Source of the DNA: an uncultured Candidatus Saccharibacteria bacterium
Lineage (GTDB): Bacteria > Patescibacteriota > Minisyncoccia > Phycocordibacterales > UBA918
Length of the DNA: 64,000 nucleotides
Direction: 5' to 3'
NCBI GenBank assembly: GCA_964502345.1
Contig: CAZCWH010000001.1
Coordinates: 167-64,166 of the forward strand
Within the stretch, counting starts at the first letter, position 1, and each line of letters opens with the position of its first letter. The notes under the pieces are model-generated. The model did not search any database and was not told where the DNA came from. It saw only the letters and a program-made list of their open reading frames with translations. Shown piece by piece: positions 20,332 to 60,840 of this stretch. The position numbers and the translations under genes are program-made.

Positions 20332-20335
20332 CTAC

Positions 20336-22123
20336 TTACGTGCTCGATGCGACTGTTTCCTGTGAGTCCAGAGTATCAGTAATTGGTTCAACGTACGGAG
20401 TAATAATTAGATCTTCAATATGCGCTACATCCTCCTCAAAGAGAGACTCAACTGAAGGGATAACGACATCTGAAATACTTGATGTGGCTCCATCAGTATC
20501 GAATTCAGTCTCAAGAATTACATCATCGGTCGATGTTGCAAAATGCGTAGGTGGGGGTATAACCACATCCACTAAAGTGCCTGTCTCCGTCGATGTCGCA
20601 TACGTATCATCGGTAGGATCAGGCTCTGGATTAGTTGACGTTGCTATTTTTGTTTTTACTTGAACGGGTGGTTGCACAAGTGCTCGTTCCTCACCAGTTT
20701 GCTCAGGATCTGGAATCTCTTGTGGTACAGATGTGGGAGAGGAATTAAGAGGCATGACCTCACCACTTTCAAGATCGTATCCTTTAGTCTCTACGTCACC
20801 GTTTTCATGCTTTGTATCATACACAAGCACAAAGCGAGGATTATCAACTGATGCTCCATCAGCATCCTCAATAATGCTTACCTGTTTCGTAATCCGATCA
20901 TAGACCTTTACACGCCATGCATTGTTATCAAATGCCTGCCAAATAATGTAGTTACCGTTTATACGTGGTGATACATCACTCGTGGTGTTATCAGTAATCA
21001 TACTGAGTTCACCTTTCTCTTCAAGCATTACTTCCCAATCACTGCCAACCCAACCCTGCCAAACTGTGATGTCACCATACCGAGAAGGCTCCATATTATT
21101 ATAGCGATCGCTCGTAAGTTGCGCTTCCTCTCCTGTCTCAACGTCATAAGAAATAATTTGGTACCGCTCATCTATGAGCCGGTGCCAAACAATTGTATTT
21201 GATACCTCGTCAAAGTAAGGAGCATCATCATCAAGCATATTAAAGGAAATTTGAATGAGTTCGCCATCTCGCTCAACGAAAATTTCTTTATCACCATCCT
21301 GATCTACTGCGGAAAATACTCTATCGGTTCCAAATACTGAAGGTGTCGTCGTTCCAGAAGAGCAGTAAAATGATCCGTCGCCTACACTCACACACTCATC
21401 TTTTGAAAAGGTGAATTTGCTAGCCTCATCAATCGCAAGGCTTATTGCAGTCGTATCTATCTGAACTACTTCTGGGGTTACAGTAGCAACCTCTGAAATG
21501 GGAGCTGTCTCAATATCTATAATATCCTCTGTACTTGATGCGGCAGGTGGTTGCACATCCTCTATAACAGGCGGGATACTTTCTGGAATTATTTCACCCG
21601 TAGTTGTGGCAGACTGATCATCTGATGTTGTTGTAGCTGTTTCTTCACTTTGAGAAATACCTTCGCTTTCAGGATTAGTAGAAGATGATGAGCTACTCAA
21701 TTCAACATCTTGCAGGACAGGCGCTTCTGTTTCCTCATCTTGAGAGATGTCTTCTAAAGTCGTACTAGCTTCACTCTCTTCAATATACTCAAGGCTTTCA
21801 ATGTTAGTTTCTTCTGTCGCGAGTTCGCTGTCAGGCAGTAAGTCATCAATAGCAGCAGTATCCTCATCACTAACTATTTCTTCTACTTTCGCACTTTCAG
21901 TAGTATCAGAAGAAATTTCAGCTTCAGTCACAGACTCAGATTCAACGCCTCCAGCATCTTCCTGAATGGAAGCTGTTTCTAGAGTATCCACTTCAGAAGC
22001 AAACGCAGGCGCCATCGGGAGAAGTACAAGTACACAGAAAAGGAAAGACGCCAAAAGGCGAGACATTTCATATAAAAATCCTCGCGTATTTTTCTTCGCT
22101 TCTTCTTTATGCGACCTGTTCAT
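20336..22123 (-). CDS. secreted protein with an acidic low-complexity N-region and beta-propeller-like repeats (IVWHR.../ITVWQGW.../YIIWQAF...)
   Basis: 595 aa with a signal peptide. An E/S/T-rich stalk is followed by three TolB-like repeat blades. Confidence 0.6.
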   Translation of the reverse strand: MNRSHKEEAKKNTRGFLYEMSRLLASFLFCVLVLLPMAPAFASEVDTLETASIQEDAGGVESESVTEAEISSDTTESAKVEEIVSDEDTAAIDDLLPDSELATEETNIESLEYIEESEASTTLEDISQDEETEAPVLQDVELSSSSSSTNPESEGISQSEETATTTSDDQSATTTGEIIPESIPPVIEDVQPPAASSTEDIIDIETAPISEVATVTPEVVQIDTTAISLAIDEASKFTFSKDECVSVGDGSFYCSSGTTTPSVFGTDRVFSAVDQDGDKEIFVERDGELIQISFNMLDDDAPYFDEVSNTIVWHRLIDERYQIISYDVETGEEAQLTSDRYNNMEPSRYGDITVWQGWVGSDWEVMLEEKGELSMITDNTTSDVSPRINGNYIIWQAFDNNAWRVKVYDRITKQVSIIEDADGASVDNPRFVLVYDTKHENGDVETKGYDLESGEVMPLNSSPTSVPQEIPDPEQTGEERALVQPPVQVKTKIATSTNPEPDPTDDTYATSTETGTLVDVVIPPPTHFATSTDDVILETEFDTDGATSSISDVVIPSVESLFEEDVAHIEDLIITPYVEPITDTLDSQETVASST

Positions 22124-22255: not shown

Positions 22256-22993
22256 TTACTTAATAAATGAGTCAGCTAGAAGTATTGAAAAATCCTTAAG
22301 CGTCATGCGCCCGTCTCCATTAAAATCAAAAATCTTACCTTTTGTGAACCATGCTGCCATAAAGGCAGAGATGTCTTTAAGGTCCACTTCCCCATTACCG
22401 TCGAGATCAGTCACGAAGGCAACCTCAGCAGTTCCAATAAGCTCACCATCTACACCCGTTATGTAGATTCTTGTCTCGTCGTCCTCAACGTCCGCGACAT
22501 CAACAAGTGTTCCTAATCCATCTCCCGCAACAAATGTAGCGTTATCGGTGGTCACCTTAGCAATACCTGATTCGAGTGCTTTTGCATTGATTCGAGCAAT
22601 CGTATGCTCTCCAATAAAACCCTTTCTAAATGTTCCTCCCCGCATATATATGCGCCCATCCTTTGCATAGGGTTTCTCTGTCCACAGTGTAATGACTGAG
22701 GTCCCCGTATCAACACTTTCGATGCTCATCTGTGATTCTGGATACTTTATGGTTATATCAACAGCATTTACCGGTGTATGTGCTGTTGCGCGTACTTCTA
22801 TGTAAAAATTCTCACCTTCGAGTACTGAAGACGGACTTGTGTGAATTGAAATATATGAAGTATTTTCTGTGATTACAGAAGCAAGGCTTGCAAAGAGTGC
22901 CGTGAGTACAACCAGTGGAAATGCATATCGAACAGTCTTACCAGTTGTAAGCGTATATGATGGAAACATCATTTTCCAAATCTTTTCAAACAT
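22256..22993 (-). CDS. small secreted protein with an N-terminal cohesin-like domain and a C-terminal dockerin-like module
   Basis: cohesin-like segment VLEGENFYIEVRATAHTPVNAVDITIKYPESQMSIESVDTGTSVITLW. The C-terminus DLDGNGEVDLKDISAFMAAW...DFNGDGRMTLKDFSILLADSF is two Ca-binding dockerin-like repeats. Confidence 0.6.
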   Translation of the reverse strand: MFEKIWKMMFPSYTLTTGKTVRYAFPLVVLTALFASLASVITENTSYISIHTSPSSVLEGENFYIEVRATAHTPVNAVDITIKYPESQMSIESVDTGTSVITLWTEKPYAKDGRIYMRGGTFRKGFIGEHTIARINAKALESGIAKVTTDNATFVAGDGLGTLVDVADVEDDETRIYITGVDGELIGTAEVAFVTDLDGNGEVDLKDISAFMAAWFTKGKIFDFNGDGRMTLKDFSILLADSFIK

Positions 22994-23659: not shown

Positions 23660-25405
23660 CTATTGTACTATATGTTCGATATCTGATATTTCCTTTCGTA
23701 TCTTTGACCGTGCGTCAGCGAGATCTGTTTCAATTTGATCTATAAGAGTATTTTCTGCCTGTGTGAGCTTGCCTTTTCGTGACTCTTTCAGCTTTTCAAC
23801 ATTTTTGTGCATGTTGGTCATTACTTCGTCGAGCTCTATCTTCATTATACTCTCTACCTCAAGGGTTTCTTTCTCAACTTTTCGACGCCACACCGCAAGC
23901 CTGTGCCAGAGATACCAGCAACCAAAAATCAGTACAATAGAGAGTGAGATAAGCGGAACAAGTACAGAAAGCACCGTCACAACAAACGAACCAATTCGTA
24001 CGAATCCTGGTTCCTCAACTATAATTCTAATCGGATCTGAGACATCACTTGTTGCGCCGTGCATGTCTGTTGCAATTGCCGTTATGTCATACACACCAAT
24101 TTCAAATGGTGCGTCAGGGATGAATATGAATGCACCTCCCCCGTCGGATTTAAGTGTGTACGTTTTTGTAGCACCATCTGTTGGTGTCACTGACACCTCT
24201 ACCTGTGCGTCAGGACGTGTAGTACCCCTCAGTGCTGGGATTACTTCAGCGTTAATTCGTGATGGATACTCAGTAAAAAGTGGTTTCTCAAATGCTGTAA
24301 TATCAAATGAATATGTAGCAACTCGACTGTTACCTGCACCATCAAATGCTTCTACGATAAGTGTATGGTGTCCTGGCGCTATTGAAGGAAGCACGTACTT
24401 TCTCGTTTCTTCCTCATCTAGATATTCAAAAGGGTCAGTAGCATCAATCTGTATTTTGTATCGTGTTACAGGAGAAATATCTTCCACAGTAAACTGAAGT
24501 GTTCGCTTTGGATTTGATGGATCAAAATCAGTATCTTCTGAAACAGTAAATGCTGACGGCGCCTCACTATCTACCTGGATTTTAAAGTGGGTTACCCTAC
24601 CCCATCCCTCTGCATTTTTAAACTGAATATGGAAATACGATATGCCTTGTGGCAAATCCTCGAGTGTACGTGATCGAATGGGCTCGTCATATACGATGGT
24701 TGGTATTGTACTTGGAGCAGTGTCGAGTAATGTACGTACTGCAATAATTCCACTCGGTAGTTCCCAACTAAGCTCTGCAGCGTCATTCTTGTACCAGGTC
24801 TCCTGATTACCATGAGTCGTTGAAGTGACAACTGGAGCCTTTGGGGTATTGGCTGGTGCAATATACTCAGGCTCTGGATTACTCGTTACTGCAGAAATTG
24901 TATAGGAAGAACCAGTCATTGATGTCAGAACATTTGTTCCAAGTCCATCAGCTGCAAGCACTGAACCACTCTTAAAGGTGACTTTTGGATTACCTGCACC
25001 AAGAGGTCTAAACGTAATTGTTAAAATGTTCCCCGAGGCTCCGGTGTAACCCGTTGGTGATCCTCCTCCAAACGATATTGTGCCTAATGTATTTGAAAAA
25101 CTTGGCTCCTGTGTCCACAAATTAAAAATGGAACTCGCTCGAGAGACACTGACGACAGAAAGCTCCTTTGGGTTATAAGAAAGCTGACCATCTGCAGCAT
25201 TGACTGCTTTGTTTTGAGTATTAATGATCACATTTGCGGTAAATGTCCCTCCAACGGTATACACTCCCGTATCTGGACTCACACGAAGTGTTGCAGCATG
25301 TGCCGACTGTGTCATACAGATATACAACACACTCAAGAGACCAACGATGATGATCGTTCGTAAAAATACTATTCCTATACTATTCGATTTCAACATTGTC
25401 TTCAT
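23660..25405 (-). CDS. cohesin-domain bitopic membrane protein with a cytoplasmic coiled-coil tail
   Basis: signal peptide, then a cohesin-like domain (ATLRVSPDTGVYTVGGTFTANVIINTQNKAVNAADGQLSYNPKELSVVSVS...NLW). Ig-like domains follow, then a TM (IGSFVVTVLSVLVPLISLSIVLIFGCWYLW) and a ~90-aa charged helical tail. Confidence 0.7.
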   Translation of the reverse strand: MKTMLKSNSIGIVFLRTIIIVGLLSVLYICMTQSAHAATLRVSPDTGVYTVGGTFTANVIINTQNKAVNAADGQLSYNPKELSVVSVSRASSIFNLWTQEPSFSNTLGTISFGGGSPTGYTGASGNILTITFRPLGAGNPKVTFKSGSVLAADGLGTNVLTSMTGSSYTISAVTSNPEPEYIAPANTPKAPVVTSTTHGNQETWYKNDAAELSWELPSGIIAVRTLLDTAPSTIPTIVYDEPIRSRTLEDLPQGISYFHIQFKNAEGWGRVTHFKIQVDSEAPSAFTVSEDTDFDPSNPKRTLQFTVEDISPVTRYKIQIDATDPFEYLDEEETRKYVLPSIAPGHHTLIVEAFDGAGNSRVATYSFDITAFEKPLFTEYPSRINAEVIPALRGTTRPDAQVEVSVTPTDGATKTYTLKSDGGGAFIFIPDAPFEIGVYDITAIATDMHGATSDVSDPIRIIVEEPGFVRIGSFVVTVLSVLVPLISLSIVLIFGCWYLWHRLAVWRRKVEKETLEVESIMKIELDEVMTNMHKNVEKLKESRKGKLTQAENTLIDQIETDLADARSKIRKEISDIEHIVQ

Positions 25406-26471
25406 AGAGTGCTAACAGTTTTTGCTTGCGTCGCCAGAGCATGTATACAATAAGCCCACACACAACGATTACGAGCGTCCCCACAACAACCCACGTAATA
25501 ATTGTGCCCAAGGTTAATGTACGCATTGCCTCTGCAGGAACGAGGACCGCAACAGTTTCATTTCCTGCCTTATCAATTGCTTTGACACGTATTGTGCTAT
25601 TAAGTGTTTGATCAGTTAGGACATATGGGCTTTCAGTTGTCACCCATGGCGCATCAGCTCTCCCCCACCTAAATGCATAGAAATCTTCAAAGGGTTCTTC
25701 CATTACTTCATAGTGGTCGATTCCTGATTGTTTATCATGACTATTAAAGGATATGAAGTAGCGTCCACTAAACGCGAAATCATCTTTGAAAAGACTTATT
25801 AAAAAATCTGATGGCTTAGTGGTGTCCGTCTGGACACGATTTTTCCAGTCGTCTTCAGTTGTTTCACCTGCAGTGCCAAGTAGTGTGATTATGGCTCCCT
25901 GTGTACGTAGTGAAGCTGGAGTGCCGAAACCATCATGAATAAGCACTTGCGATGTCTCGTCAACCCAAATATTAGCTGTGGGTGCATCTCCAGCTCCGAT
26001 ACTAAAACCAGGTGACCGGAAGACAAGTTCTGCAATTATATTCGTGAGACTCGGATCACCAGCAATTCTTCCACAGTATCCACCAGGCAAGCCTCCTGCG
26101 AGTGTAATCGTGTGATTTTCTTCATCAATCTTAGGGTCCTCGAGCCAAATATTGAGAATTGAATCACCGCGCGATACATCAACGGCTCTGATGGCTGAAT
26201 CATACTTAATTACAGCATCGACTGCATTGATACATTCCCCTTCATCTGTATCAATTCTTAAACCGACCGTCACAGTATCACCTCGATTTAAATTTATTTC
26301 TCCTGGATCAAAATATAGAAGTGCAGCTTGTGTATGCACACATAACACCAAAAACAGTAGTGAAGAAAATAAAAAATAGGCGAAACCTCGCACGACATGC
26401 TGAATGGCGCTGTGCATATGTACGTATAGTATAACAGTCACTATAGTCTGACATAGCCCCACTACCCACAT
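25380..26471 (-). CDS. cohesin-domain membrane protein (N-terminal signal/anchor, cohesin-like domain, C-terminal TM)
   Basis: LLYFDPGEINLNRGDTVTVGLRIDTDEGECINAVDAVIKYDSAIRAVDVSRGDSILNIW is cohesin-like. The C-terminal TM is TIITWVVVGTLVIVVCGLIVYMLW. Confidence 0.65.
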   Translation of the reverse strand: MWVVGLCQTIVTVILYVHMHSAIQHVVRGFAYFLFSSLLFLVLCVHTQAALLYFDPGEINLNRGDTVTVGLRIDTDEGECINAVDAVIKYDSAIRAVDVSRGDSILNIWLEDPKIDEENHTITLAGGLPGGYCGRIAGDPSLTNIIAELVFRSPGFSIGAGDAPTANIWVDETSQVLIHDGFGTPASLRTQGAIITLLGTAGETTEDDWKNRVQTDTTKPSDFLISLFKDDFAFSGRYFISFNSHDKQSGIDHYEVMEEPFEDFYAFRWGRADAPWVTTESPYVLTDQTLNSTIRVKAIDKAGNETVAVLVPAEAMRTLTLGTIITWVVVGTLVIVVCGLIVYMLWRRKQKLLALYEDNVEIE

Positions 26472-26826: not shown

Positions 26827-27963
26827 TTAGAACGTCGGTGTCGCAATGTAGCGAAGCTCCGTCGTATAGTCGTCGCCTGCTTCTTGGAGCGCCGAGATCT
26901 GAATCTGGTACCCGATGCGTGCGGCGCCTATTCCGGCAGTCACACCATCTGCTGGTCCCGTATGACCCATAACCACTATAGGTGTCGTGCTACCTGATAC
27001 CCATTCATCTGAACCAAACTCTTCTGGTGCAGAACGTGAAGTTGTAGCGTCAGTTGAGGTTAGACCCCAATGACCGTAGGTAGCGATGTCAGCAACAAGA
27101 GCACTTGGCCCTTGCCACGCAGTTGGTGTTTGCGTGTAGGCTCCATCGATGAATCCATCGATTATTCCGCCTGTTGTTGATTCGAGATCACCTGTTTGTT
27201 CTACTGTTACCGTGTAGCCGTGTAGGGCGTTTGTGGTAACAGAAAGATCTTGAGCAAGTGTTTTTGACGTATTGATTTCGAGTGTACCGAACGGTAGCGC
27301 TACATTAGTTGAAGTTGCTGCAGTCGTTGTTGGGCTCCCGTTCACGGTTGAGCTGGCTCCGACGCCAGTGACTGTGAATGTGAGCGAAGCATTGACGCTT
27401 GCAGATACCGTTACTTCATCAATGATAGCGACCCGAACTTGCCCTGAATCGGGCATGGTTCCACCGATTTCAATAAGATGCGATGTCGTTGTTGCAGTCG
27501 GGTTTGAGATCTGAGCATCCCCTCCTCCAAATAGACCAATCTCAATTACGAGTGGTGTACTTGATGCCTGCGGTACGTTACTCGGTGATGTGAGTGTTAG
27601 TACCTGAGCATTGAAGTAGGCTCCCCACACTCCACTTCCATTTACTGCCGCTACTGTTTGTGGAGTAGCTGATGCAGTGATGTCGATATCATCGAATGCC
27701 ATTGCTGGTATCGTGAAATCTACAGGAAATGTAATGGTGATCGTTGAACTTGCGAGCATACCAGTTGGCGTTGTAAACGCAATGGTGTGGTCGGAAGGCA
27801 ACCCTGGTGCAGAACTAGACAACGTATCACTTGCAAAAGTGATTGATGCAGCTTCCGCGGTGCGGAAGATGGTTGGAAGACCTGTACTCCAAAGGAATAC
27901 AGCGATACCAACAATCATTGCAACAGCCTGAAGAGTTCGCACGGTACTTGCCGTGTGAATCAT
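26827..27963 (-). CDS. secreted protein sharing the ~170-aa type-A C-terminal module with the 2471-aa giant protein
   Basis: 378 aa with a signal peptide. Its C-terminal half aligns by eye with the 2471-aa C-terminus (L.F.V.GV.ASST...PFG.L.I...VTTNA..GY... ...RYIA.P.F). Confidence 0.6.
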   Translation of the reverse strand: MIHTASTVRTLQAVAMIVGIAVFLWSTGLPTIFRTAEAASITFASDTLSSSAPGLPSDHTIAFTTPTGMLASSTITITFPVDFTIPAMAFDDIDITASATPQTVAAVNGSGVWGAYFNAQVLTLTSPSNVPQASSTPLVIEIGLFGGGDAQISNPTATTTSHLIEIGGTMPDSGQVRVAIIDEVTVSASVNASLTFTVTGVGASSTVNGSPTTTAATSTNVALPFGTLEINTSKTLAQDLSVTTNALHGYTVTVEQTGDLESTTGGIIDGFIDGAYTQTPTAWQGPSALVADIATYGHWGLTSTDATTSRSAPEEFGSDEWVSGSTTPIVVMGHTGPADGVTAGIGAARIGYQIQISALQEAGDDYTTELRYIATPTF

Positions 27964-28537: not shown

Positions 28538-29662
28538 TCACCCGGTCCAGTTGAAGAGAAGGATTGAGAAGTCTTCGAGACTGACTCGACCATTTTGATT
28601 AATGTCTGCTGGAGGATTCGAGTTTCCACCTGGCGTATTCCACCAAAAAATCAGGATTGAAAAGTCGATTAGATTTACCTTCCCGTCACGATTGAGATCC
28701 GAGTTACTCGTCGGCCTCCCCTCAACTCCTACAAATAGTGACAGTGCCGTACCATAGGTACTTTCTGTTTTGAGGTTGCCTGTTCCTTCAATGAATCGTG
28801 CCTTTGCGGTGTGTGTATCTGCGGTGACGCTCGATGTATTGAAATCAACACTCCAATTTCCATTCGCGTCTGATGTTGTCCTCAGAGTTTGCTTTCCATT
28901 ATCAATTGATACTTCAACTGCAACACTTGGAACTGTTTGCCCACGCAAAATTATTGTCTCACCGGGATTAGGAGCATTATTGGAAGCACGTATAGTTGGT
29001 GGAATTAGCACACCGTTTACGTTTGTCACTGCACCCTGCGTTATATCAAACGTAGTACTGAATGTTGCAGATCGTGTCCCCGCAGTATCATTTGCCCAAA
29101 AGCTAAGTGATGCTGTACCAGGTTCAGTATCTGTATTAAATAAAAATTCTCCCCTACTATTTGTACGCACAGTCCCCACTGACTCACCATCAATTAAAAT
29201 AGTAACGGTGACATTCGGATACGCTTTCCCCTGCACAGTCACTTGCGTATCGCCAAGTTCGGTATCTCGTCCTCCTGACCCTGAATTTCCACCACCACCG
29301 GTCGATCCTCCTCCTGCATCTGCTTCTTCTTCTGTACAGTCTGCTGCACAAAAATCACCATCGGTATTGTTACCATCATCACACTCCTCTGAATAAATCG
29401 TTTGTAAAATAGCATCACCACAATATGGTGCCCACCTACAAATATCAGTGCACTGTCTTCCTGCGATTGTTGTGCTGTATTCCCCAGTATCTGTTGGGAT
29501 ATCACAGCTTTCTCCTGCATTGACAATAAGGTCACCACAAATACTAATGAGTAGCGAAGTCGTCGCAATACTTGATTGAGACGAAGCAACAAGAGGAACA
29601 AACATGGTGAGCAAACCACATATGCTTAGAATGAAATGATACGCAGGTCGTTTAGCGTACAT
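28538..29662 (-). CDS. secreted dockerin-bearing protein. Myxococcus-type Cys-rich repeats, a Gly-rich linker, two Ig-like domains, and a C-terminal dockerin.
   Basis: CGDxxxxxGEECDDGNNTDGDFCAADC-type repeats. The C-terminus DLNRDGKVNLIDFSILIFWW...DINQNGRVSLEDFSILLFNWTG is a dockerin duplicated-segment motif. Confidence 0.7.
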   Translation of the reverse strand: MYAKRPAYHFILSICGLLTMFVPLVASSQSSIATTSLLISICGDLIVNAGESCDIPTDTGEYSTTIAGRQCTDICRWAPYCGDAILQTIYSEECDDGNNTDGDFCAADCTEEEADAGGGSTGGGGNSGSGGRDTELGDTQVTVQGKAYPNVTVTILIDGESVGTVRTNSRGEFLFNTDTEPGTASLSFWANDTAGTRSATFSTTFDITQGAVTNVNGVLIPPTIRASNNAPNPGETIILRGQTVPSVAVEVSIDNGKQTLRTTSDANGNWSVDFNTSSVTADTHTAKARFIEGTGNLKTESTYGTALSLFVGVEGRPTSNSDLNRDGKVNLIDFSILIFWWNTPGGNSNPPADINQNGRVSLEDFSILLFNWTG

Positions 29663-29665
29663 ATG

Positions 29666-30604
29666 CTAACGTGCTCGCGAGCGTCGTGACTTCCCTATGC
29701 GTATGACAACAAACGCAAACGATATAATAAAGAATAATACTGGTGCAATCACAGAAAGCTTGTGCGGTAATGAAAGTCCACTAAACCCAAAACCAGCAGT
29801 CTGTAATGTTCCATACGGCAAGATACTCACGTTTACTTCACCATTTAACTTAACCTCCTCATCGTTCAATATCTCAAATCGTGCTAGGTAACTTCCTGCA
29901 GGGAGTCTTGTTGGCAATTCAGCGAACACAGTCTCAACTTTAAAAGGATCAACCTCATCTATTTTTCCCTTCTTATGAGTCTCTTCCAAAAGTACCTTGC
30001 CTGTGCTGTCATAGATTCTAAACACAACGTCACTTGGAGCGACTGGAACATTTCCTAAGTTTTCAAGAAGCATTTCAAAACGGATTTTTCCTGGGAAATA
30101 CAACCACCCAACTTTATGTCCTTCGTTTAAATCAGATATGCCAATTTTTCTTACTTTAAAATCTTTAATCTCCTTATCAATGACCGTAATATCTACATCG
30201 ATTTGTGCTCCTAGAGAAATATTTACTGCTCCACCAGACACCTGATCATCGGGGGCACCGGTCTTAATACGAATGTTACCAGTGTAATCCTTAAAATCAG
30301 CATCATCTGGAACCTTTACCCGAACGGTCATTGGAATTTTTTGCGCTCCCTGCGGTAGTAAAAATTCGTTTCCTTCAACAATAGTAAACCACTCATTGAT
30401 ACCAGGAACATCAACACTGATTGTTGCTTTAAGCGCAGTAGTTGGATCACTACGTACGAGATAAATTATTTGCTCATACTCAGAATTTCTTGTAAGACTT
30501 GCGTTCGATACATAGGGAGGCGTAATTCCAAATCCCGCATGAACAGTCGCAGTCACTGAAAAAGCAAGCAGTATAGCCAATAAAAGAGATCTATAGATTC
30601 CCAT
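29666..30604 (-). CDS. DUF916/DUF3324 (CscA)-like membrane-anchored cell-surface protein
   Basis: signal peptide, then GFGITPPYVSN... as a DUF916-like start. Two beta-rich domains, a C-terminal TM, and an RSRRSRAR tail. Confidence 0.5.
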   Translation of the reverse strand: MGIYRSLLLAILLAFSVTATVHAGFGITPPYVSNASLTRNSEYEQIIYLVRSDPTTALKATISVDVPGINEWFTIVEGNEFLLPQGAQKIPMTVRVKVPDDADFKDYTGNIRIKTGAPDDQVSGGAVNISLGAQIDVDITVIDKEIKDFKVRKIGISDLNEGHKVGWLYFPGKIRFEMLLENLGNVPVAPSDVVFRIYDSTGKVLLEETHKKGKIDEVDPFKVETVFAELPTRLPAGSYLARFEILNDEEVKLNGEVNVSILPYGTLQTAGFGFSGLSLPHKLSVIAPVLFFIISFAFVVIRIGKSRRSRAR

Positions 30605-30717: not shown

Positions 30718-32601
30718 CTACCAGTCGATTGATTCTCCTACTTTTGCAGTGAAAGTGTTTTCACCGGTATAGTCACCTGCATATGAGATAGTTATTGGAA
30801 CTCTAATACCCCAGAAAGCATCTGCCGTGGCCTGTGATGAGGTTGCTGTAGACTTAGGTACGTTGATTTCAATTTCCTTTGGCGTGGTTGAAGATAGTGT
30901 GAATCCTGCATTAACAGCATCTGTATAGCTTATAGAGCTAGTTGCAAACACCTGCTCACTTTCTGGAATTGTCGATGATGCAGACTGAGGACAGAGAGTT
31001 GATCCAGTATACGTAGTACACATTGATTCACCTGTTACATCTTTATCGAGACCAACGTTTCCAGTTGCAGCTATAGTTGTCTCAGCTACAAGAGGATCCG
31101 TTTGTTGTCCAGGTTCAAGTGCACCATATGGAATCGAAAGCGTGTTGAGAGCGAATGCAAGGAAACTTGTTACCTCAACCCCAGTATCCGCTTCTGAAAG
31201 TGATCCAGTTAATGAGACACCGTTGTTACCTTGTTGCCCATCATCAATAGCACGAACTTGTGCCCTCCAATCGTTCCATGAATACTTGGTAGACGTTGCT
31301 GTTCCATCAGTTGGATCTGCGACATACCAAAGTGGGAATGTACAATTCCAAATCATATCAACGTCTGATGAACCAGTACATGAGGTAGTTGAAGCCGTAC
31401 AATTAAGATTCCAGACAGCACTTGAAACAGAGCTTGGGTAACAATTATTTGGGTCATATGGACCAGTAACTGGGCACGTTGATGATGAACTTGTGATGGT
31501 ACCAGTACCGTTTCTGTAAATACTCAAATCGTAATCAATGACTTCATCTCCAACTCCACCACCAACCGCATCGCAACTATTATTATCTACAGTAGTAAAT
31601 GACAAACTGAAGCCTGTAGTTTCAGCTGCTTCATTCACAAGAACTATATTAGTAGTTGTCGGTTGGACAAGTGAAATAGTCGAGGCAGTAACTGTCGGTG
31701 CAATATTACCTACCGTAAGTATCGAGTTTGTTCCTTGTGTAGTAGTAGCTTCAAATCCGTGACTATCAAAAACATACCCATACGCTCCATAGTTTTGGTC
31801 TTGAGTAGGAACAACTACTGTATACGTAGCGGTTGCATTAGCAGCAACAAATACTGTGGTACTTGCAAGCGTTGTTCCTGTGCATGAGTCAGTTGTCGTA
31901 CTGAAGCCTGCTGTTGCACAAACGAAGAGCTTTACAAAGTCCTGTGTTCCAGATACATCTGCATCAGTTGAAGTACTTGTGAAAACTACAGCATTACCTG
32001 GAGTTGTCGTTGAGTTATCCCAGAATGAAGTAAAGTTTGGTCGGTGATTGATTTCAAATGGTGATGAGTTGGTTGCATTTGTTCCTTGTGTGTATGAGCT
32101 ATTGCATCGTGGTGATACTGAGTTACCGTCGCAAATCCAAGCAAACCAAGCATTGGATTCTGACCAGCTGTGTAGTGATGTGGTTGCAGCTCGTGCCTGT
32201 GTTCCAGAAGTTGTTGTTGCTGAAACTGCATACTGCACACCGTTATTACAGTGTGGCGCGCCATTGCTAGTTGCAGATGCTGTATCGCTTGTACTACATA
32301 TGAGAAGCCAGTAATCCTCAGCGTTCGAGTCTGTAGCGACTGCAACCCACGCAACTACATCCCCTGCATTAGTTGGTGTTGTTGCTGAAGACTCCGTTTC
32401 CTCTGTTGTAGAGGCTGTCCACTGAGGAGGGGTGTTAAGAACAGTAACTGATGTAGTTGCATTTTCCTGAGCAACTACTTGCTTGAGATCATTTGTACCA
32501 AGATTGAAAATAAATACAAATGCAAAAATCAGCACTCCAATGATTGTGGTGTACACAGTGATTTTACCTGCCGTACGTAAATTATCTGTGTTATATGACA
32601 T
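30718..32601 (-). CDS. secreted Cys/Thr/Ser-rich surface protein (627 aa) with the type-B C-terminal module shared with the 7248-aa giant protein
   Basis: N-terminal TM/signal. The last ~330 aa align by eye with the giant protein's C-terminus (PNNCY...DPTDG...WRA...YGALE...FWGI.[IV]P...G[TE]NTF). Confidence 0.65.
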   Translation of the reverse strand: MSYNTDNLRTAGKITVYTTIIGVLIFAFVFIFNLGTNDLKQVVAQENATTSVTVLNTPPQWTASTTEETESSATTPTNAGDVVAWVAVATDSNAEDYWLLICSTSDTASATSNGAPHCNNGVQYAVSATTTSGTQARAATTSLHSWSESNAWFAWICDGNSVSPRCNSSYTQGTNATNSSPFEINHRPNFTSFWDNSTTTPGNAVVFTSTSTDADVSGTQDFVKLFVCATAGFSTTTDSCTGTTLASTTVFVAANATATYTVVVPTQDQNYGAYGYVFDSHGFEATTTQGTNSILTVGNIAPTVTASTISLVQPTTTNIVLVNEAAETTGFSLSFTTVDNNSCDAVGGGVGDEVIDYDLSIYRNGTGTITSSSSTCPVTGPYDPNNCYPSSVSSAVWNLNCTASTTSCTGSSDVDMIWNCTFPLWYVADPTDGTATSTKYSWNDWRAQVRAIDDGQQGNNGVSLTGSLSEADTGVEVTSFLAFALNTLSIPYGALEPGQQTDPLVAETTIAATGNVGLDKDVTGESMCTTYTGSTLCPQSASSTIPESEQVFATSSISYTDAVNAGFTLSSTTPKEIEINVPKSTATSSQATADAFWGIRVPITISYAGDYTGENTFTAKVGESIDW

Positions 32602-32673: not shown

Positions 32674-33888
32674 TTATTCATACCGAATGGCATCAAGCGG
32701 GTTGAGAAGTGACGCTCTACGCGCTGGAAAAATTCCAGTTAAATAGCCTACTGCAGCCGAGAAAATCGCAATGAATGTAAGGAAGGTTAGCGGGAAAGAA
32801 AACAAGTTTACTGATTGACCACCGAACTGACTTGCCGCGATGTTCAACAGGATATTCACCACAATCCCCAGCGTTACCCCCATAGCTATCCCCGTCACAC
32901 CTCCCATGAACCCTACGACAATTGACTCGGAAATGAAGAGGAATTTAATGTCACGAGGCGAAGCGCCGAGCGTTCGCATAATCCCAATTTCTTTTGTACG
33001 TTCAAGAAGTGTGACTGTCATTGTGTTGAACATACCGATCGCTGAAACAAGGAGTGCAATACCTCCGAACGTTGCCAAGACTGCCTGCACTCCTTCAAAA
33101 ATCTTTGATGCTTGCTCAACTGTCTTTGAAAGTGCAGTAACCCGATACCCTGCCTTTATGAGTGATTCTTCGGTTACGGTGAGGAATTCATTTGATACCA
33201 CTTTCACTTGAGCACGGTCGTACTCTTCTACCCCCACGTAGTTTTTAAGTTCTTGAAGCATCATGAGTGCATTGAGTACACCTTCTTCCTTTGTAACCCC
33301 TCGAACCTTAAACTGCTTCTCGATTACAATCTCATTGATTGTATCTGTTCCATCGTCTGCAGGAATCAAGAGGCGAAATGAAACCTCCTGTCCTATAAAA
33401 GAATCGATTTTATCATCAGCAATACCGAAAAGCTTTAGAACAGCAGGTGAAATCATCACATCAGTTCCGTTTCCAATATCAGCTTCCTGAAAAACTTCTC
33501 CGTATGTCGCAGTTATACCTGAATATCGTATATATGCAGGTTCTGCTCCTTGAAGGAAGACATTACCAGTTAGACCTTTATAGGTAATGAGCGCAGGATA
33601 CCGTGCGAGCGGAGCAGCATCTTGAATATTTGGGTCCTTTTCAAATTCAGCGATAACCTCGTCAGTGATTGAAAGATTTCGTGCCCCCGTTGCCGAGACG
33701 CCAAGTGAGAGAAGACTGTCACCGAAGACAATCTGTTCAAGAATGATCTGCTGAAGACCAAACCCGAGTCCAACAAGCACAACGACTGCCCCGGTTCCCA
33801 CTCCCATACCAAGAATAGTAAGCCACGTACGAAGTGGATTCGTCTTAAACATTCTCGTTGAGAGTCGAGCGAGATCAGCAACTTGCAT
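32674..33888 (-). CDS. ABC transporter permease, FtsX/MacB-like, with a large extracytoplasmic domain
   Basis: 404 aa with TM1, an ~220-aa periplasmic-type domain, then a 3-TM FtsX domain with TLGAS...G motif context. Confidence 0.85.
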   Translation of the reverse strand: MQVADLARLSTRMFKTNPLRTWLTILGMGVGTGAVVVLVGLGFGLQQIILEQIVFGDSLLSLGVSATGARNLSITDEVIAEFEKDPNIQDAAPLARYPALITYKGLTGNVFLQGAEPAYIRYSGITATYGEVFQEADIGNGTDVMISPAVLKLFGIADDKIDSFIGQEVSFRLLIPADDGTDTINEIVIEKQFKVRGVTKEEGVLNALMMLQELKNYVGVEEYDRAQVKVVSNEFLTVTEESLIKAGYRVTALSKTVEQASKIFEGVQAVLATFGGIALLVSAIGMFNTMTVTLLERTKEIGIMRTLGASPRDIKFLFISESIVVGFMGGVTGIAMGVTLGIVVNILLNIAASQFGGQSVNLFSFPLTFLTFIAIFSAAVGYLTGIFPARRASLLNPLDAIRYE

Positions 33889-33982
33889 ACTGTAGTGTAA
33901 TAGTAAACAAAAAACACCGAATACGAAACCTGGTTGCTCGCATAACTAGCACTCAAAGCTAAAAGCGCACTTTGAGCGTGCA

Positions 33983-35305
33983 TTAATTTTTGTAACTCAC
34001 ATCAACACCGAGTGCGATGAGTTTCTCCATATAGCGAGCAATATCATCTGCTACTTTTTCCTTAAGACCAAGACCTCCTGTTTTTTCGCTTTCCATGAGC
34101 CCTTGATGGAACTGTACATCACCGTAAATACCCGAGAGCCTATCTGCAATGAGTCCAGCCATATTTTCATTTGTCTTTTTTGAAAGCGGTATATTATGAC
34201 ACTGGAGTAAATATTCCCGTACCCGTTCAGCAAATTTATGCTGTTGAAAGAATGCGGCATCTGATGTGTTATCACTTCGGTATCGTCGAACATCATCTGC
34301 CTGTGTTACGAGTGTGACTGAAAGGTCAGACATTCGCTCAGCCGTCACACGATCAATCCCAATACCTCCTTCTTCATACTTGCGGATGAGTGTCTGCGTA
34401 AAGAGTTTTTTATGTATTTTGCCTGAGATAAGCAGTCGAATCGCCTTTTCAAGTCGCACGAGTTGGTCAAATGTATAGTCTTGCGTGAGAAAGTTCGTGA
34501 GGCTTTTCACTCGAAGTGTTTCAACAGAGTCGTACGGAAAAAGACGAGCAAGTTGTTCAAGTTCAGTCACAATAGTCTCGCCTTCCATAACTGGTTTAAT
34601 CTGCTTACGTTGTGGATTAACAACCTCACGAACAATAAATCCATCTTTGAGATAGTACACGCGGTGCGCATATGCAAGGTGTGCTGCATTATGGGAAACC
34701 ATGATGATAGTACGCATATCAAATGTATTGATTTCATCAATCTTATCCATCACTTGCTGTGTCGAAACACTATCGAGATTCCCTGTCGGTTCATCCGCAA
34801 GAAGAATCTGAGGATCATTCACCATGGATCGAGCCACCGATACACGTTGCTGTTGTCCTCCAGAAAGCATAGAAGGAATTTTGTGCGATACCCCTCCCAC
34901 ACCAAAGCGATCAAGGAGCGACTGCGCTCGACGTTCACGAGTTGCCTTATTTGCATCACAAAAAATCATTGGGAGTGCCACATTATCAAGAACTGAGAGC
35001 GAACCAATGAGGTTAAATGACTGGAAGATAATACCCATGACGTATCGTTGAAAAAACACACGTTCTGCTGGTGGATACGCATATACATCATCACCACGAA
35101 TAAGCAGTGTTCCGTCCCCAGGCGGGAGTGAGCCTTGAATCGAATACATGAGTGTAGATTTACCACACCCTGATGGACCGAACAGAATGATATATTCACC
35201 CTCGTAGATATCAGTATTAACGCCTTGGAGTGCTTTAAACTCATTCGACTTACCTTTGTTGTAGGTAATCGTGAGATCTCGACAGACGATGAGTGGTTTA
35301 GCCAT
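33983..35305 (-). CDS. ABC transporter ATP-binding protein (FtsE/LolD/MacB family) with an unusual ~200-aa C-terminal extension
   Basis: Walker A GPSGCGKST, signature LSGGQQQRV, Walker B ILLADEPT, H-loop. The protein is 440 aa against ~230 for typical FtsE. Confidence 0.9.
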   Translation of the reverse strand: MAKPLIVCRDLTITYNKGKSNEFKALQGVNTDIYEGEYIILFGPSGCGKSTLMYSIQGSLPPGDGTLLIRGDDVYAYPPAERVFFQRYVMGIIFQSFNLIGSLSVLDNVALPMIFCDANKATRERRAQSLLDRFGVGGVSHKIPSMLSGGQQQRVSVARSMVNDPQILLADEPTGNLDSVSTQQVMDKIDEINTFDMRTIIMVSHNAAHLAYAHRVYYLKDGFIVREVVNPQRKQIKPVMEGETIVTELEQLARLFPYDSVETLRVKSLTNFLTQDYTFDQLVRLEKAIRLLISGKIHKKLFTQTLIRKYEEGGIGIDRVTAERMSDLSVTLVTQADDVRRYRSDNTSDAAFFQQHKFAERVREYLLQCHNIPLSKKTNENMAGLIADRLSGIYGDVQFHQGLMESEKTGGLGLKEKVADDIARYMEKLIALGVDVSYKN

Positions 35306-37019: not shown

Positions 37020-40000
37020 CTAATCTCCAATTGCGTAAAACGTATTCGTCCCCTGGTGTGGATTCCCTGCAACTCCAAATGGAATTGCTATACCCCAGAA
37101 AAGTTGATCACTCACAGAAGGTGTCGTAGAAGTCGGCTTTGTGAGGTCAAGTTCATAATTCGTAGAACTTGCAGAAAGCTGGCTACAGAACGTACACGTG
37201 GTGTATGTAAATGTTGACGTTGCAAAGATTTGCTCATTAACAGGAATGAGTGAGGAATTACCATCAGTAAGGTCAGTTCCTGCTATCGCAATATCGAGAG
37301 CGTCATTTCCGATATTTTCAACCGTTGTTGTTGCATTATAAGAACCTGTGTCGTTATTAACTTCTAGAGCCCCATAGTTAATAGTGCTGTCTACTGTAAT
37401 TGCACGCAAAGTGAGTAGATCTATCGAAGGTGCTGTGCCTGTCGCAATAGCACCGCTTTGATCACTCACCGAAAGTTCTGCGCGCCATGTTTGACCAGCG
37501 TAGGTACCAACATCTGTTGGGTCTGCATGGTAATAGAAATCTGCCGAACACGTTACGTCACATGAACTTCCACTACAATTTTCAAACACGCACTGTGTTG
37601 GAGAAGCTATGTAGCAGTTATTTGGATCACTCGTACATGACGAGAGCACACTTGAGCGGAACATGGTAGTTGTTGCGAGATTCAAATCACCATACCCGTT
37701 GAGGTCCGAGACTGTCCCTGTTGCGTAAATTGTCGTTGTCGCACCAGGTGAAAGAGTGATGTCATTTCCACCATTAAGTGAGAGTGAGGTTACGACCGGT
37801 GTAAACACAAGACTCAATTCTGCAACCTTTGTGTATGCGTCGAGCTCTGCCCCTTCGTTTGTCACACGGAAACAATAGTTCGAATCACTCACGTTAATTG
37901 TGGGTGCGATTACATACTCAAGTTCTGTAAACTCACCTGAATCGACATCTAGGCTTCCTGTGTTATTGCTTGAATCTTCCACTACCTGTCCTGGTGTAAA
38001 CACACCCGAGCCTCCGAGGAGGTCAGTCGTACTTTCCAAGTCTGTAATATTGGAAGAAGACACCATACAAATATCACTCGTACCGCAACTTGCGACATTC
38101 GGAACCTCTACATAGTCATTGTAATCAACAGATTCACAGCTCGGTGCTGCACCCTTTGGTGCAAACTCAATCTCATAATTTTGCGCACTCACTGGAGTTC
38201 CGCTATTTTCTACGAGGAATCGAACGCGAGCAGTTTCCCCTATATCAATTCCAGAAGCAGGGGTATTACGAGCAGAAGTCCATGTTGCACCACCAGGAAC
38301 CTGTTCACCACCTAAGCTCGTAGTTGCAGCGGTTGCCATGAGCGGACGAGCTGAGTAAATATCCCATCCACCGTGGTATCCCCAAAGTGTAAATCCAACA
38401 CCTCCCGAGGTGTAGCTACTGTCCGTCGCACTGGTTGTTGCAACCACACTGCCATTTTTCGATAGCCGTACATATATTGAGTCATCGGTATCCCAATCAA
38501 CTTCAACTTCATACCAACCTGTACTGTACGTTACTGTTGTTGATGCAAGTACGGTACCACTCGTATCACGATGGGTTGCATTTTCAGAAATAGAGAGTCG
38601 ATCAACACCGAAAAGTTCGAGACATACCGCATAACTTGTCGCTCCTGTCTGAACACCAAAGTGGGTACATGATTCGTCCGCTGCTCCACTCACAGTATCA
38701 ATGTATTGGAGCCATCTAAGTGTCTGCCCTTGCGCTACCGTCACGCCAAGATTACGCATGTTCTGATCTGTCTTTGAATTGGTTTGATCAAACGCTTCAA
38801 GCCTATATGTTCGCTCATATGCGCTACTTCCCACCACACTAAAGTCTCCAGTGTCACCAGTGTACTCACTGATATTTCCATCTTCAAAGTTGTCCATGAA
38901 GTCAAACGTCGATGTTGCACTTCCATCACTCACCGTACCTTCCCCGTAGTACATGTATACAGTTGCTGTTGTTGACGTTGCAAGTGTTGGTACCTTGACC
39001 CACACAACAGCTTGTGTACTTGCAGTATATGATTCGGTGAAGTGTTCTACCGCAGTGAGCCCATCTTCTTCTGTAAATCTTAGATCATCAAAATCGGCCT
39101 GCATATCACTGTCATATGGCACGATGACCTTCACGGCGACGTCATGATAGGTTACTGGATCAGAATTTGTTACCGTGACACGCTTTCGCTTACTCCAGTC
39201 AAAGTCAAACCACTCTGAATTTGGTACGCCTTCCCCACCATCGTCGTTTCGGAATCGATACGCTGATTGCTCAATGAGTATACAGTTGCTATCGTCCCAT
39301 CGTATTGAACCACAGGCATCCCCACCATCAATATCGAATGCTTCACCATCAAAGTTTCCTGTATGTGACACAAATGTCCATGCACTCGGCGTAGAGCCAC
39401 TCAACTCTACGTTTGCTCCAGTGATAGCCGTTGTTGTTGCAAAGGCAACTCCAGTCACAAAGAGTCCTGCGTTGTAGTTGAGTGTTGTTGAGGAGAGCGT
39501 TATGAGTGAACCTCCATTTACCGCAAGCGTGAAGTTACCTTCGGTGAGTGAACTTACGGTCGTGAGACCACTTAATTTTAGTCCGTCAACATTCATATTT
39601 GCGAAGCTGTAGTAGAGTGCATTGAGTGTGCCTCCAAGAATATCAATCGCATAGGTACCGCTTCCTTGATTAGAAATAGTTGTATCAAATCCACTTGCTC
39701 CTACGATATTGAGTGATCCACCCTGAAGTGTCGTGGTTGCATTCGCCGCAATGTACACAAATACCTGTCTTGAACTTCCGCCAAGCGCGGTGCCATCGAA
39801 ATCAGTTGCATAGCTCCAGTAGTCAGCACCTGCGGTTCGCTCATAATCTCCATAGATGTAGAGGACACCACTTACACCTGCATGATCTTGTGAGTAAAAT
39901 GAACTTTCTGAATCAGTGATTGTAATCGTGCCCGTACTATCCCACGCACGAAGCTCCGTACTTGAACCAACGCGGATATTGTTGTAGGTATCTCCACCCG

Positions 40001-60379: not shown

Positions 60380-60840
60380 CACTGCTCCTTTGTACGTGCT
60401 CGACTTATCTTTAAACGAACCTTCTCCTTTTCTTCAGGTCGCAGAAGAGGAAGGATAAGGACCAGTACTCCATTCTTAATCTTTGCCTCTGCACCCTCAA
60501 TATCAACACTTTCTGGTAAGATGATTCGTCTATAAAAATCGCCCCAGACGCATTCTTCAGTAAAGAAAGCACCTTCAGGCTTTTTCTTTGGGAATGCCAA
60601 ATGTTCTGGGCGCAACCGCTTACCCTCAATAAGCACAACATCGGCATCACCCTCAATAGACACATGAATATCGGTGAGCTCAGCCCCGGCAGCTTGTGCA
60701 TATACGGTAATAAGATCAGTCGTCTGAAATACATCGACATCGAGTTGCACAATCTTATCAAGTGCCGTTTCTTCTTCGCTCGATTGCAGACGTTGTTCAG
60801 TTCGAATACCTCTTCCCTTGAGTCTTTGCAAAAAGGACAT
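60379..60840 (-). CDS. Hsp20/alpha-crystallin family small heat-shock protein
   Basis: 153 aa with an alpha-crystallin domain (LDVDVFQTTDLITVYAQAAGAE...IEGKRL...GDFYRRIILPESVDIEGAEAKIKNGVLVLILP). Its stop TGA overlaps the ATG of the downstream cohesin gene as TGATG. Confidence 0.85.
   Translation of the reverse strand: MSFLQRLKGRGIRTEQRLQSSEEETALDKIVQLDVDVFQTTDLITVYAQAAGAELTDIHVSIEGDADVVLIEGKRLRPEHLAFPKKKPEGAFFTEECVWGDFYRRIILPESVDIEGAEAKIKNGVLVLILPLLRPEEKEKVRLKISRARTKEQ

Follow-up and report, generated by a model that had tools for sequence, protein, structure and literature searches.

Dockerin-tailed secreted proteins paired with membrane-anchored cohesins in a Patescibacteria genome: a probable cohesin-dockerin surface system without enzymes

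In this work we analysed a 64,000 nucleotide stretch of DNA from an uncultured Candidatus Saccharibacteria bacterium (GTDB lineage Bacteria; Patescibacteriota; Minisyncoccia; Phycocordibacterales; UBA918), which covers positions 167 to 64,166 of the forward strand of contig CAZCWH010000001.1 in assembly GCA_964502345.1 and is referred to here, over its whole length, as the window. The window encodes two secreted proteins that end in a dockerin, here designated A and B, together with four cohesin proteins, three of which are type-I membrane proteins (Coh510, Coh581, and Coh363) while the fourth combines a cohesin with a dockerin of its own (CohDoc245). We propose that these proteins constitute a non-cellulosomal cohesin-dockerin surface system, in which A and B would dock on membrane cohesins encoded downstream of them and display heads that carry no enzyme; the probability that we attach to this reading is roughly 0.65. 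An earlier note on this DNA, made from the sequence without database searches, had suggested surface display by a cohesin-dockerin system, and this suggestion is supported by the modules found, by the presence of the cohesin genes, and by a conserved order of a dockerin gene followed by a cohesin gene.

According to the mechanism that we envisage, A and B would be exported by the Sec pathway. Each has a head at the N-terminus, which is variable, and a flexible Gly/Ser linker that leads from it to two immunoglobulin-like (Ig-like) domains forming a rigid stalk; at the C-terminus there is a calcium-binding dockerin resembling those of type I. After export the dockerin would plug non-covalently into the cohesin of a type-I membrane protein that has a single cohesin and whose gene lies just downstream, and this receptor would consist, from its tip inward, of a membrane-distal cohesin, a linker, two beta-sandwich spacers, a transmembrane helix, and a cytoplasmic coiled coil. 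The gene neighbourhood would pair B with Coh510, and A with Coh363, Coh581 or CohDoc245, the last of which may serve as an adaptor since it carries both a cohesin and a dockerin. Heads that carry no enzyme would in this way be presented at the cell surface, where they could plausibly serve to attach the cell to a host cell or to a substrate.

The open reading frames (ORFs) of A and B described in the earlier note are both present, on the minus strand (Table 1). Alignment of residues 137-374 of A with residues 383-623 of B gave 41% identity over 247 columns (BLASTP, E 1e-54; 44% identity by MAFFT), which bears out the claim that the two proteins share a C-terminal cassette, although this cassette is about 240 amino acids (aa) long and not about 200. 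As had been read from the sequence, it consists of two Ig-like domains, matched by Big_6 and Big_13, upstream of a dockerin matched by Dockerin_1, with all three Pfam families matched in both proteins. No significant similarity between A and B was found by BLASTP outside of the cassette, and since this is their only significant alignment the two heads are unrelated, as claimed; the idea that they were recently swapped did not hold, as shown below by the conservation of both proteins. The Cys-rich repeats of the A head are indeed of the Myxococcus type, with matches to DUF4215 (Pfam, 34.7 bits against a cut-off of 27) and to TIGR02232, the myxococcal cysteine-rich acidic repeat myxo_disulf_rpt (NCBIfam, 39.3 bits against 20.8), both of them memberships, and an alignment to pappalysin-1 and -2 in a search of the PDB. 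Their motif had been misread; it is CGDAILQ..EECDDGNNTDGDFC, with a degenerate first repeat, and in the same way the longest glycine run in the linker of B is of 11 residues, not of 13. The two Ig-like domains of A are folded with confidence in the AlphaFold model (predicted local distance difference test, pLDDT, of about 90), for which Foldseek returned generic Ig-stalk matches only, namely the adhesin stalks of Bap, MpIBP, and SiiE, while a phmmer search of B against the PDB gave no match for its head. In agreement with the earlier note, neither A nor B contains a glycoside hydrolase or other enzyme domain detectable with Pfam and NCBIfam. A lipoprotein reading of the "LSIC" motif of A was dropped because the motif is atypical and its position is not conserved in the orthologue consensus.

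The dockerins are placed at the extreme C-terminus of both proteins and belong to Dockerin_1 (PF00404), with 34.1 bits for A and 36.6 bits for B against a cut-off of 22.9, so that the profile check proposed in the earlier note came out in its favour. Each is composed of two tandem segments of 22 residues with a 12-residue calcium loop followed by a helix; the segments start at residues 322 and 353 of A and at residues 571 and 602 of B, with the second ending at the C-terminus, and their spacing of 31 residues is fixed in all orthologues. Calcium positions 1, 3, 5, 9, and 12 of the loop read D/N/D/N/D in segment 1 of both proteins, and D/N/N/S/D and D/N/D/S/D in segment 2 of A and B, respectively. 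The Asp/Asn pattern that had been anticipated is thus present at positions 1, 3, 5, and 12 of all four segments, where it is essentially invariant across 120 A and 120 B orthologues, and Ser stands at position 9 of the second segment; from this pattern segment 1 is fully canonical and segment 2 slightly degenerate. A profile made from 25 diverse tails aligned to type-I dockerins of solved structure across the two segments, with 2y3n_B as the best match (E 1.3e-6); the dockerins of CelS, CelD, R. bromii Amy12, and C. perfringens NagH were matched as well, and the leading matches are dockerins. In the Pfam search weak EF-hand matches overlapped segment 2. The A and B dockerins are identical in 74% of their residues and 66% of their nucleotides, and the same codon is used in only 21 of the 43 identical residues; this low nucleotide and codon agreement led us to reject a recent gene conversion between them and points to long-term constraint. 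Fixed differences between the two are the Glu (A) or Thr (B) at position 11 of segment 2, and Leu-Leu (A) or Met-Ile (B) at positions 16-17, and these could encode partner specificity. Among the A orthologues (P0003-P0118) there is also a variant with Ala at loop position 6 of segment 2, which reads DINxNAKVGLED and is paired with Gly at position 9.

Candidate cohesin partners, on which the cohesin-dockerin suggestion of the earlier note hinged, are encoded in the same window. Coh510 and Coh581 are members of the Pfam cohesin family (PF00963, cut-off 24.1 bits; scores in Table 1), and Coh363 and CohDoc245, which fall under this cut-off, are homologous to them with E values of 1e-10 to 1e-13. 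The four cohesins are mutually homologous (E 1e-10 to 1e-70), with Coh581 and Coh510 sharing 36% identity at E 1e-70. Coh510, Coh581, and Coh363 have a common topology of a signal peptide, an N-terminal extracellular cohesin, spacers, a single C-terminal transmembrane segment, and a basic cytoplasmic tail, which in Coh510 and Coh581 is a long coiled coil. For Coh510, AlphaFold gave a model with an average pLDDT of 80.9, rising to 90-95 over the cohesin (residues 40-170), and in Foldseek this model matched the type-I cohesins 6kgf, 1g1k, and 2vn5 with TM-scores of 0.70-0.75, root-mean-square deviations of 2.3-2.9 A, and about 20% identity; its top match was the non-cellulosomal cohesin-FnIII of C. 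perfringens GH84C. The predicted structure confirms a cohesin beta-sandwich (jelly-roll) fold for Coh510, which is the one of the four that was modelled. In CohDoc245 the calcium positions of the dockerin are D/D/N/D/D and D/N/D/T/D, and its orthologues at loci L007, L008, L010, and L011 also carry both a cohesin and a dockerin. There is one cohesin match per protein, both in the four window proteins and in every cohesin ORF of the 80 genome loci described below; no carbohydrate-binding module (CBM) was found in any of these, nor any S-layer homology (SLH) domain in the window proteins scanned.

The conservation of A, B, and Coh510 was analysed in protein searches, in which their families gave 1,953, 666, and 1,141 matches at E <= 1e-5, respectively. 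Among the best 120 matches listed for each, identities were 66-86% for A, 53-70% for B, and 66-80% for Coh510, in all three cases over the full length. The orthologues sit in metagenome-assembled genomes of Minisyncoccia and Candidatus Kaiserbacteria, in which A, B, and the Coh510 family co-occur on the same contigs; by the names of these orthologues the source of the window would be an ultrasmall bacterium of the Kaiserbacteria/Paceibacteria type. Members are named in NCBI as "DUF4215 domain-containing", "dockerin type I domain-containing", and "cohesin domain-containing protein". Since both proteins are conserved over their full length and co-occur in the same genomes, the "swapped heads" of the earlier note are not a recent shuffling; A and B are, on the evidence of these alignments, old and conserved paralogous families. 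Synteny is also kept in relatives, in the order B, Hsp20, Coh510, a giant protein with DUF2341, an fn3 protein, an ATP-binding cassette (ABC) ATPase, a MacB/FtsX permease, proteins of about 625 and about 310 aa, and A. Within the window the Hsp20 and Coh510 genes overlap by 4 bp, and those of Coh363, Coh581, a 219-aa protein, and CohDoc245 are spaced by -26, +4, and +2 bp, a tight spacing which indicates that they form operons.

The coupling of dockerin and cohesin genes was addressed by profile searches of 80 GTDB genome loci from Kaiserbacteria, Paceibacteria, Nomurabacteria, Parcubacteria, Yanofskybacteria, and others. Counting only loci with enough sequence on the side in question, a cohesin ORF is present downstream of the dockerin gene in all 13 A-type loci and in 39 of 41 B-type loci (52 of 54 together), and upstream of it in none of 51. 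In distant Patescibacteria (Yanofskybacteria L074; L056, L082, and L084) one or two cohesin ORFs come after the dockerin ORF, at a distance of 3-52 bp. A transmembrane segment is located C-terminal to the cohesin in 73 of the 75 cohesin ORFs of at least 300 aa in relatives. The putative binding between dockerin and cohesin, which would be calcium-dependent, receives only indirect backing, from this conserved gene pairing.

The diversity of heads was addressed with a profile of the cassette, which retrieved 4,842 cluster representatives with a threshold of E <= 1e-3, of which 556 remain when it is tightened to E <= 1e-30. Among the best 150 matches listed, the dockerin is C-terminal in every match to the full cassette, with total protein lengths of 255-905 aa. 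When the heads of 111 representatives were classified by module-specific phmmer searches, 45 had both B-type domains, seven had one, 18 had A-type Cys-rich repeats, and 41, many of them Cys-rich, were left unclassified; head domain 1 of B was present in 48 of the 111, together with domain 2 in 45. The survey of relatives proposed in the earlier note therefore finds the cassette joined to heads of three classes or more, and no enzymes: Pfam detected no enzyme domain and no glycoside hydrolase, lyase, esterase or CBM in the 41 unclassified cassette proteins, only Ig, fn3, MG2, Flg_new_2, and similar folds. Dockerin_1 was matched at E <= 0.001 in 35 of these 41 proteins. Both the cassette and its repertoire of heads appear to be mostly confined to Patescibacteria, and the heads may be, as the earlier note put it, binding modules. 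Clustering of the heads by single-linkage BLAST was set aside as uninformative, since 99 of the 111 merged in one component. The profile search also returned giant proteins, 1.5-4.4 thousand aa long, in which the Ig pair of the A/B stalk is present in 10-27 copies in tandem (P0246, P0255, P0257-P0259, P0377, and others); their matches stop short of the dockerin part of the profile.

Table 1. Positions of the dockerin and cohesin proteins and of neighbouring genes in the window.
Feature	Position	Strand	Description	Basis
Dockerin protein A	28538..29662	-	374 aa: signal peptide, Cys-rich head, Gly/Ser linker, two Ig-like domains, dockerin	ORF; Pfam and NCBIfam domains; full-length orthologue family of ~374 aa
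A, predicted signal peptide	29579..29662	-	~aa 1-28; cleavage site approximate	Hydrophobic aa 6-29 behind K/R-containing N-region; helix aa 5-20 in AlphaFold model
A, Cys-rich acidic repeats	29324..29545	-	aa 40-113, 8 Cys, DUF4215 / TIGR02232 type	Pfam; NCBIfam; PDB pappalysin match
A, two Ig-like stalk domains	28727..29254	-	aa 137-312	Big_6 and Big_13; pLDDT ~90; Foldseek
A, dockerin	28541..28711	-	aa 318-374, segments DLNRDGKVNLID.. and DINQNGRVSLED.., ends at C-terminus	Dockerin_1; calcium positions; conservation; profile match
Dockerin protein B	61171..63042	-	623 aa: signal peptide, two-domain head, acidic Gly/Ser linker, two Ig-like domains, dockerin	ORF; Pfam; orthologue family of ~620 aa
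B, head domain 1	62443..62940	-	aa 35-200, homologous to N-domain of 378-aa protein (26827..27963)	BLASTP, 32% identity, E 2e-6
B, head domain 2	62128..62442	-	aa 201-305, weak Y_Y_Y-like beta domain	Y_Y_Y 24.2 bits, under cut-off of 26.6
B, acidic Gly/Ser/Asp linker	61897..62127	-	aa 306-382, with G11 run	Sequence
B, two Ig-like stalk domains	61363..61896	-	aa 383-560	Big_6 30.1 bits; aligns to Ig pair of A
B, dockerin	61174..61344	-	aa 567-623, segments DLNRDGKVNLID.. and DINRDGKVSLTD..	Dockerin_1 36.6 bits; calcium positions; conservation; profile match
Coh510	58850..60382	-	510 aa: signal peptide, cohesin aa 38-172, disordered Pro/Glu linker, two beta-sandwich domains, transmembrane aa 409-431, cytoplasmic coiled coil	Cohesin 30.4 bits; AlphaFold; Foldseek
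Coh581	23660..25405	-	581 aa: signal peptide, cohesin, middle domains and Big_13, transmembrane aa 474-500, coiled-coil tail	Cohesin 33.2 bits
Coh363	25380..26471	-	363 aa: signal peptide, divergent cohesin, C-terminal transmembrane aa 321-345	Cohesin 17.9 bits, under cut-off; own family profile 51.9 bits
CohDoc245	22256..22993	-	245 aa: N-terminal hydrophobic anchor or signal, cohesin aa 59-165, two-segment dockerin aa 196-245 (22259..22408)	Cohesin 24.0 bits (cut-off 24.1) and Dockerin_1 17.9 bits, both under cut-off
Hsp20 gene	60379..60840	-	Between B and Coh510	HSP20 40.1 bits; position kept in relatives
312-aa protein	29666..30604	-	Signal peptide, beta-rich ectodomain, C-terminal transmembrane segment	Stop 3 nt before A start codon; kept directly upstream of A orthologues
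378-aa secreted protein	26827..27963	-	Between A and the cohesin genes; N-domain homologous to B head domain 1 (E 2e-6)	BLASTP
Giant 7,248-aa ORF	37020..58766	-	N-terminal transmembrane segment; DUF2341 and Ig_Rha78A_N matches	Between the two dockerin/cohesin modules
MacB-type ABC pair	32674..35305	-	ATPase 440 aa; MacB_PCD/FtsX permease 404 aa; conserved block upstream of A	
627-aa protein	30718..32601	-	Cys/Thr-rich; conserved block upstream of A	

Several observations weigh against the docking proposed here. Classical type-I dockerins have a Ser-Thr pair at contact positions 10/11, where the dockerins of the window have Leu-Ile, Leu-Glu or Leu-Thr, and the classical binding mode is therefore not transferable to them. 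Calcium position 9, which is Asn in segment 1, is Ser in segment 2 and Gly in most A orthologues, and loop position 6 of segment 2 has Ala for Gly in about 45% of the A orthologues, so that the second calcium site is possibly weakened; in the A-type dockerin it may be degenerating while segment 1 stays canonical. AlphaFold, with a shallow alignment and calcium left out of the prediction, gave a pLDDT of only 37-52 to residues 311-374 of A, and the dockerin fold is consequently argued from its sequence; the Cys-rich head of A received 30-50 (50-sequence alignment). A search of PDB sequences with the Coh510 family profile found no solved cohesin. Finally, the heads are strongly conserved, which is not usually expected of adhesins that determine host range. 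Some of these features would fit a different explanation, in which the dockerin-like tails are calcium-binding modules of the EF-hand type that do not bind the neighbouring cohesins and instead stabilise the protein or bind a carbohydrate, a host ligand or something else, the co-location of the genes being that of a shared island of surface proteins. The weak EF-hand matches over segment 2, a dockerin left unfolded by AlphaFold, and the atypical contact residues all agree with this, as does the fact that partners of non-cellulosomal dockerins are mostly putative and that papers on the candidate phyla radiation (CPR) mention dockerins in passing and read them speculatively. We nevertheless hold this explanation to be distinctly improbable, because the directional pairing of the genes, with the cohesin nearly always downstream, never upstream, and at a short distance even in distant lineages, would be hard to explain without a functional link; in addition, it is dockerins rather than single EF-hands that the whole two-segment module matches, and CohDoc245 joins both modules as adaptor scaffoldins do.

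The main rival explanation accepts the docking and assigns it another role, with the cohesin-dockerin pairs being assembly or anchoring joints of a larger conserved apparatus that would include the giant protein, the fn3 protein, the MacB-type ABC pair, the 627-aa and 312-aa proteins, and the protein of 378 aa; A and B would then be structural subunits, such as the base or the tip of a fibre or pilus tethered via the transmembrane cohesins. The gene order from B through A, with the giant protein and ABC genes included, is kept in relatives, the start codon of A lies 3 nt past the stop of the gene for the 312-aa membrane protein, and the heads are as highly conserved as structural subunits would be. 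Head domain 1 of B has a homologue in the N-domain of the 378-aa protein, the C-domain of which (aa 222-378) aligns to the whole Pam-pilin model NF058581 CPR_Pam_pilin_C (positions 5-148 of 148, E 8e-4), and Pam pili use membrane-anchored chaperones and anchors with C-terminal transmembrane helices. This Pam-pilin match, however, is far under the family cut-off (19.5 against 55 bits), so that the 378-aa protein does not count as a member, and B has no Pam pilin C-domain; profile searches of the 312-aa protein assigned no family and gave no support for a PapD-like chaperone; no dockerin or cohesin was detected in the giant protein by profile search, nor was the cassette Ig pair found in the giant proteins of the window when searched for; and in distant lineages, where the view covers the ORF pair itself, a compact dockerin-cohesin gene pair is present, which suggests that the dockerin-cohesin unit can exist without the rest of the apparatus. 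We regard this explanation as unlikely. The neighbourhood, with its giant protein, ABC transporter, and weakly Pam-pilin-like gene, suggests a larger surface apparatus. A still bolder extension, which we rate as speculative and somewhat less credible, would see A, B, and the four cohesins as joints that couple the parts of a surface organelle conserved in Kaiserbacteria/Paceibacteria and spanning about 41 kb. Its giant adhesin, its MacB-type ABC exporter, and a donor-strand fibre of the Pam-like kind would be tethered to, or signal through, single-pass cohesin receptors, the conserved cytoplasmic coiled coils of which would link docking to the cell interior; the whole would be a host-attachment machine of episymbiotic bacteria based on cohesin and dockerin. 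As for a true cellulosome-like system degrading polysaccharides, the reading given to the expressed cohesin and dockerin genes of the Shapirobacterales (PMC9123182), it is almost certainly wrong here and is rejected because there are no enzymes or CBMs: none in A, B or the 41 unclassified cassette proteins, and no recognisable carbohydrate-active enzyme among the window genes scanned. With a single cohesin per protein there is no multi-cohesin scaffoldin either, and as anchoring by SLH domains or sortase is equally wanting, a cellulosome reading of A and B is effectively refuted.

The remaining features of the neighbourhood can be described briefly. The 378-aa protein, for which a phmmer search against the PDB gave no head match, may be a distant Pam-type pilin in a lineage without reported Pam pili. 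The architecture of the 312-aa protein resembles that of the membrane-anchored PamC/D chaperones, a likeness without support from hidden Markov models. The position of the giant protein is kept in relatives, where it has 5.6-7 thousand aa and in one case a Laminin_G_3 match. That the gene of a cytoplasmic chaperone, Hsp20, is coupled to that of a membrane cohesin is an odd pairing. The MacB-type ABC pair and the 627-aa protein may serve to export a surface component or to extract it. A second dense block of surface proteins is located at 10552..22123 on the minus strand. It includes a protein of 595 aa that has weak beta-propeller repeats, one of 2,471 aa with a weak BNR_2 match, and proteins of 344 and 450 aa with weak WxLIP_PGBD matches and a C-terminal transmembrane segment, which recall the WxL/DUF916 complexes of Firmicutes. 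Just upstream of B there is an FGE-sulfatase (formylglycine-generating-enzyme-like) ORF (63505..63972, minus strand), listed with 155 aa from a start call that is possibly truncated; the relative L004 has a 267-aa FGE-sulfatase gene at the same position. All or nearly all long ORFs of the window are on the minus strand, the GC skew is negative in every 4-kb block, and no tRNA gene is found in the 64 kb, which is consistent with a single replichore arm with a strong gene-strand bias.

Cohesins and dockerins outside cellulosomes have reportedly been catalogued before, by Peer and colleagues in 2009. Compared with the cellulosomal type-I pairs (C. cellulolyticum / C. acetobutylicum CohA2-Doc; 2vn5, 6kgf, 1g1k), the proteins described here have the same two-segment calcium-loop dockerin at the C-terminus of a secreted protein, the same cohesin beta-sandwich fold (TM-scores as above), a tail profile that matches those dockerins, and the same modularity of a cargo on a dockerin, and CohDoc245, with both modules, resembles the adaptor scaffoldins. 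They differ in the absence of enzymes and CBMs, in having one cohesin per protein and not a multi-cohesin scaffoldin, in ending in a transmembrane helix and a cytoplasmic coiled coil in place of SLH domains or sortase anchoring, in a pairing of the genes, dockerin and cohesin being encoded within one operon region, in hydrophobic residues where the Ser-Thr contact pair would be, and in belonging to a Patescibacteria lineage with a genome of roughly 1 Mb. Also comparable are the C. perfringens GH84C/NagH complexes (2w1n, 2ozn/2jnk) and the R. bromii amylosome (9qfa), in which cohesin and dockerin are also found outside of cellulose degradation; the cohesin-FnIII of GH84C is the best structural match of Coh510, and the NagH and Amy12 dockerins are matched by the tail profile. 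Those complexes, however, link enzymes (glycosidases, amylases), whereas here the cargo is non-enzymatic and the receptor an integral membrane protein. With the giant calcium-dependent adhesins Bap, MpIBP, and SiiE there is the likeness of the stalk domains to the Ig pair of the cassette, and this stalk seems to share ancestry with repeat adhesins; the cassette, unlike these, has two Ig copies serving as a spacer between head and dockerin and no signature of type I secretion systems or of RTX (repeats in toxin) proteins.

Dockerins on envelope proteins of host-dependent ultrasmall bacteria have been mentioned in passing before and proposed to act in adhesion: an essential dockerin protein, SEML1_0315, in a Saccharibacterium (PMC10633639), the Shapirobacterales genes mentioned above (PMC9123182), and a giant ORF with nine dockerins in Omnitrophota (PMC10066038). 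In these reports no cognate membrane-anchored cohesins, no conserved pairing of dockerin and cohesin genes, and no cassette of the present kind are described. Pam pili, the CPR-specific fibres built by donor-strand exchange with membrane-anchored chaperones, have been reported mainly in Saccharimonadia and Microgenomatia and not in Paceibacteria (Troman et al., 2026, bioRxiv 10.64898/2026.03.03.709456). Like the present system they are a CPR surface structure of Sec-exported beta-sandwich proteins with assembly or anchor proteins that carry a transmembrane helix at their C-terminus, and the 378-aa neighbour adds a weak match to the pilin C-domain and an N-domain that recurs in the head of B; they differ in being assembled by donor-strand exchange and not by cohesin and dockerin. 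A literature search gave no account of the cassette, of single membrane cohesins with a coiled-coil tail, or of dockerin-cohesin pairing in Paceibacteria or Kaiserbacteria. The domains as such are already annotated in public records; the cassette, the type of receptor, and the gene pairing are undescribed in the literature that we found. Such a system is not surprising in principle, but it does give a testable idea of how the surface, and possibly the attachment to hosts, is organised in a large uncultured lineage.

To our knowledge, how Patescibacteria attach to their hosts is largely obscure apart from type IV pili and the Pam pili described recently. For this question the locus offers three dockerins and four membrane-anchored cohesins as candidate interactions, with the likely pairs indicated by the gene neighbourhood and with components whose conservation extends over Kaiserbacteria, Paceibacteria, Nomurabacteria, and Yanofskybacteria. 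If the pairs do not bind, the case would caution against calling "cellulosomes" from Pfam matches in CPR metagenomes, as has already been done. If they do, they would represent a cohesin-dockerin system entirely cut off from polysaccharide degradation, by which a monoderm cell, its genome being of about 1 Mb, would present heads that are non-enzymatic and interchangeable, and they would also provide compact, orthogonal plug-and-socket pairs for protein engineering.

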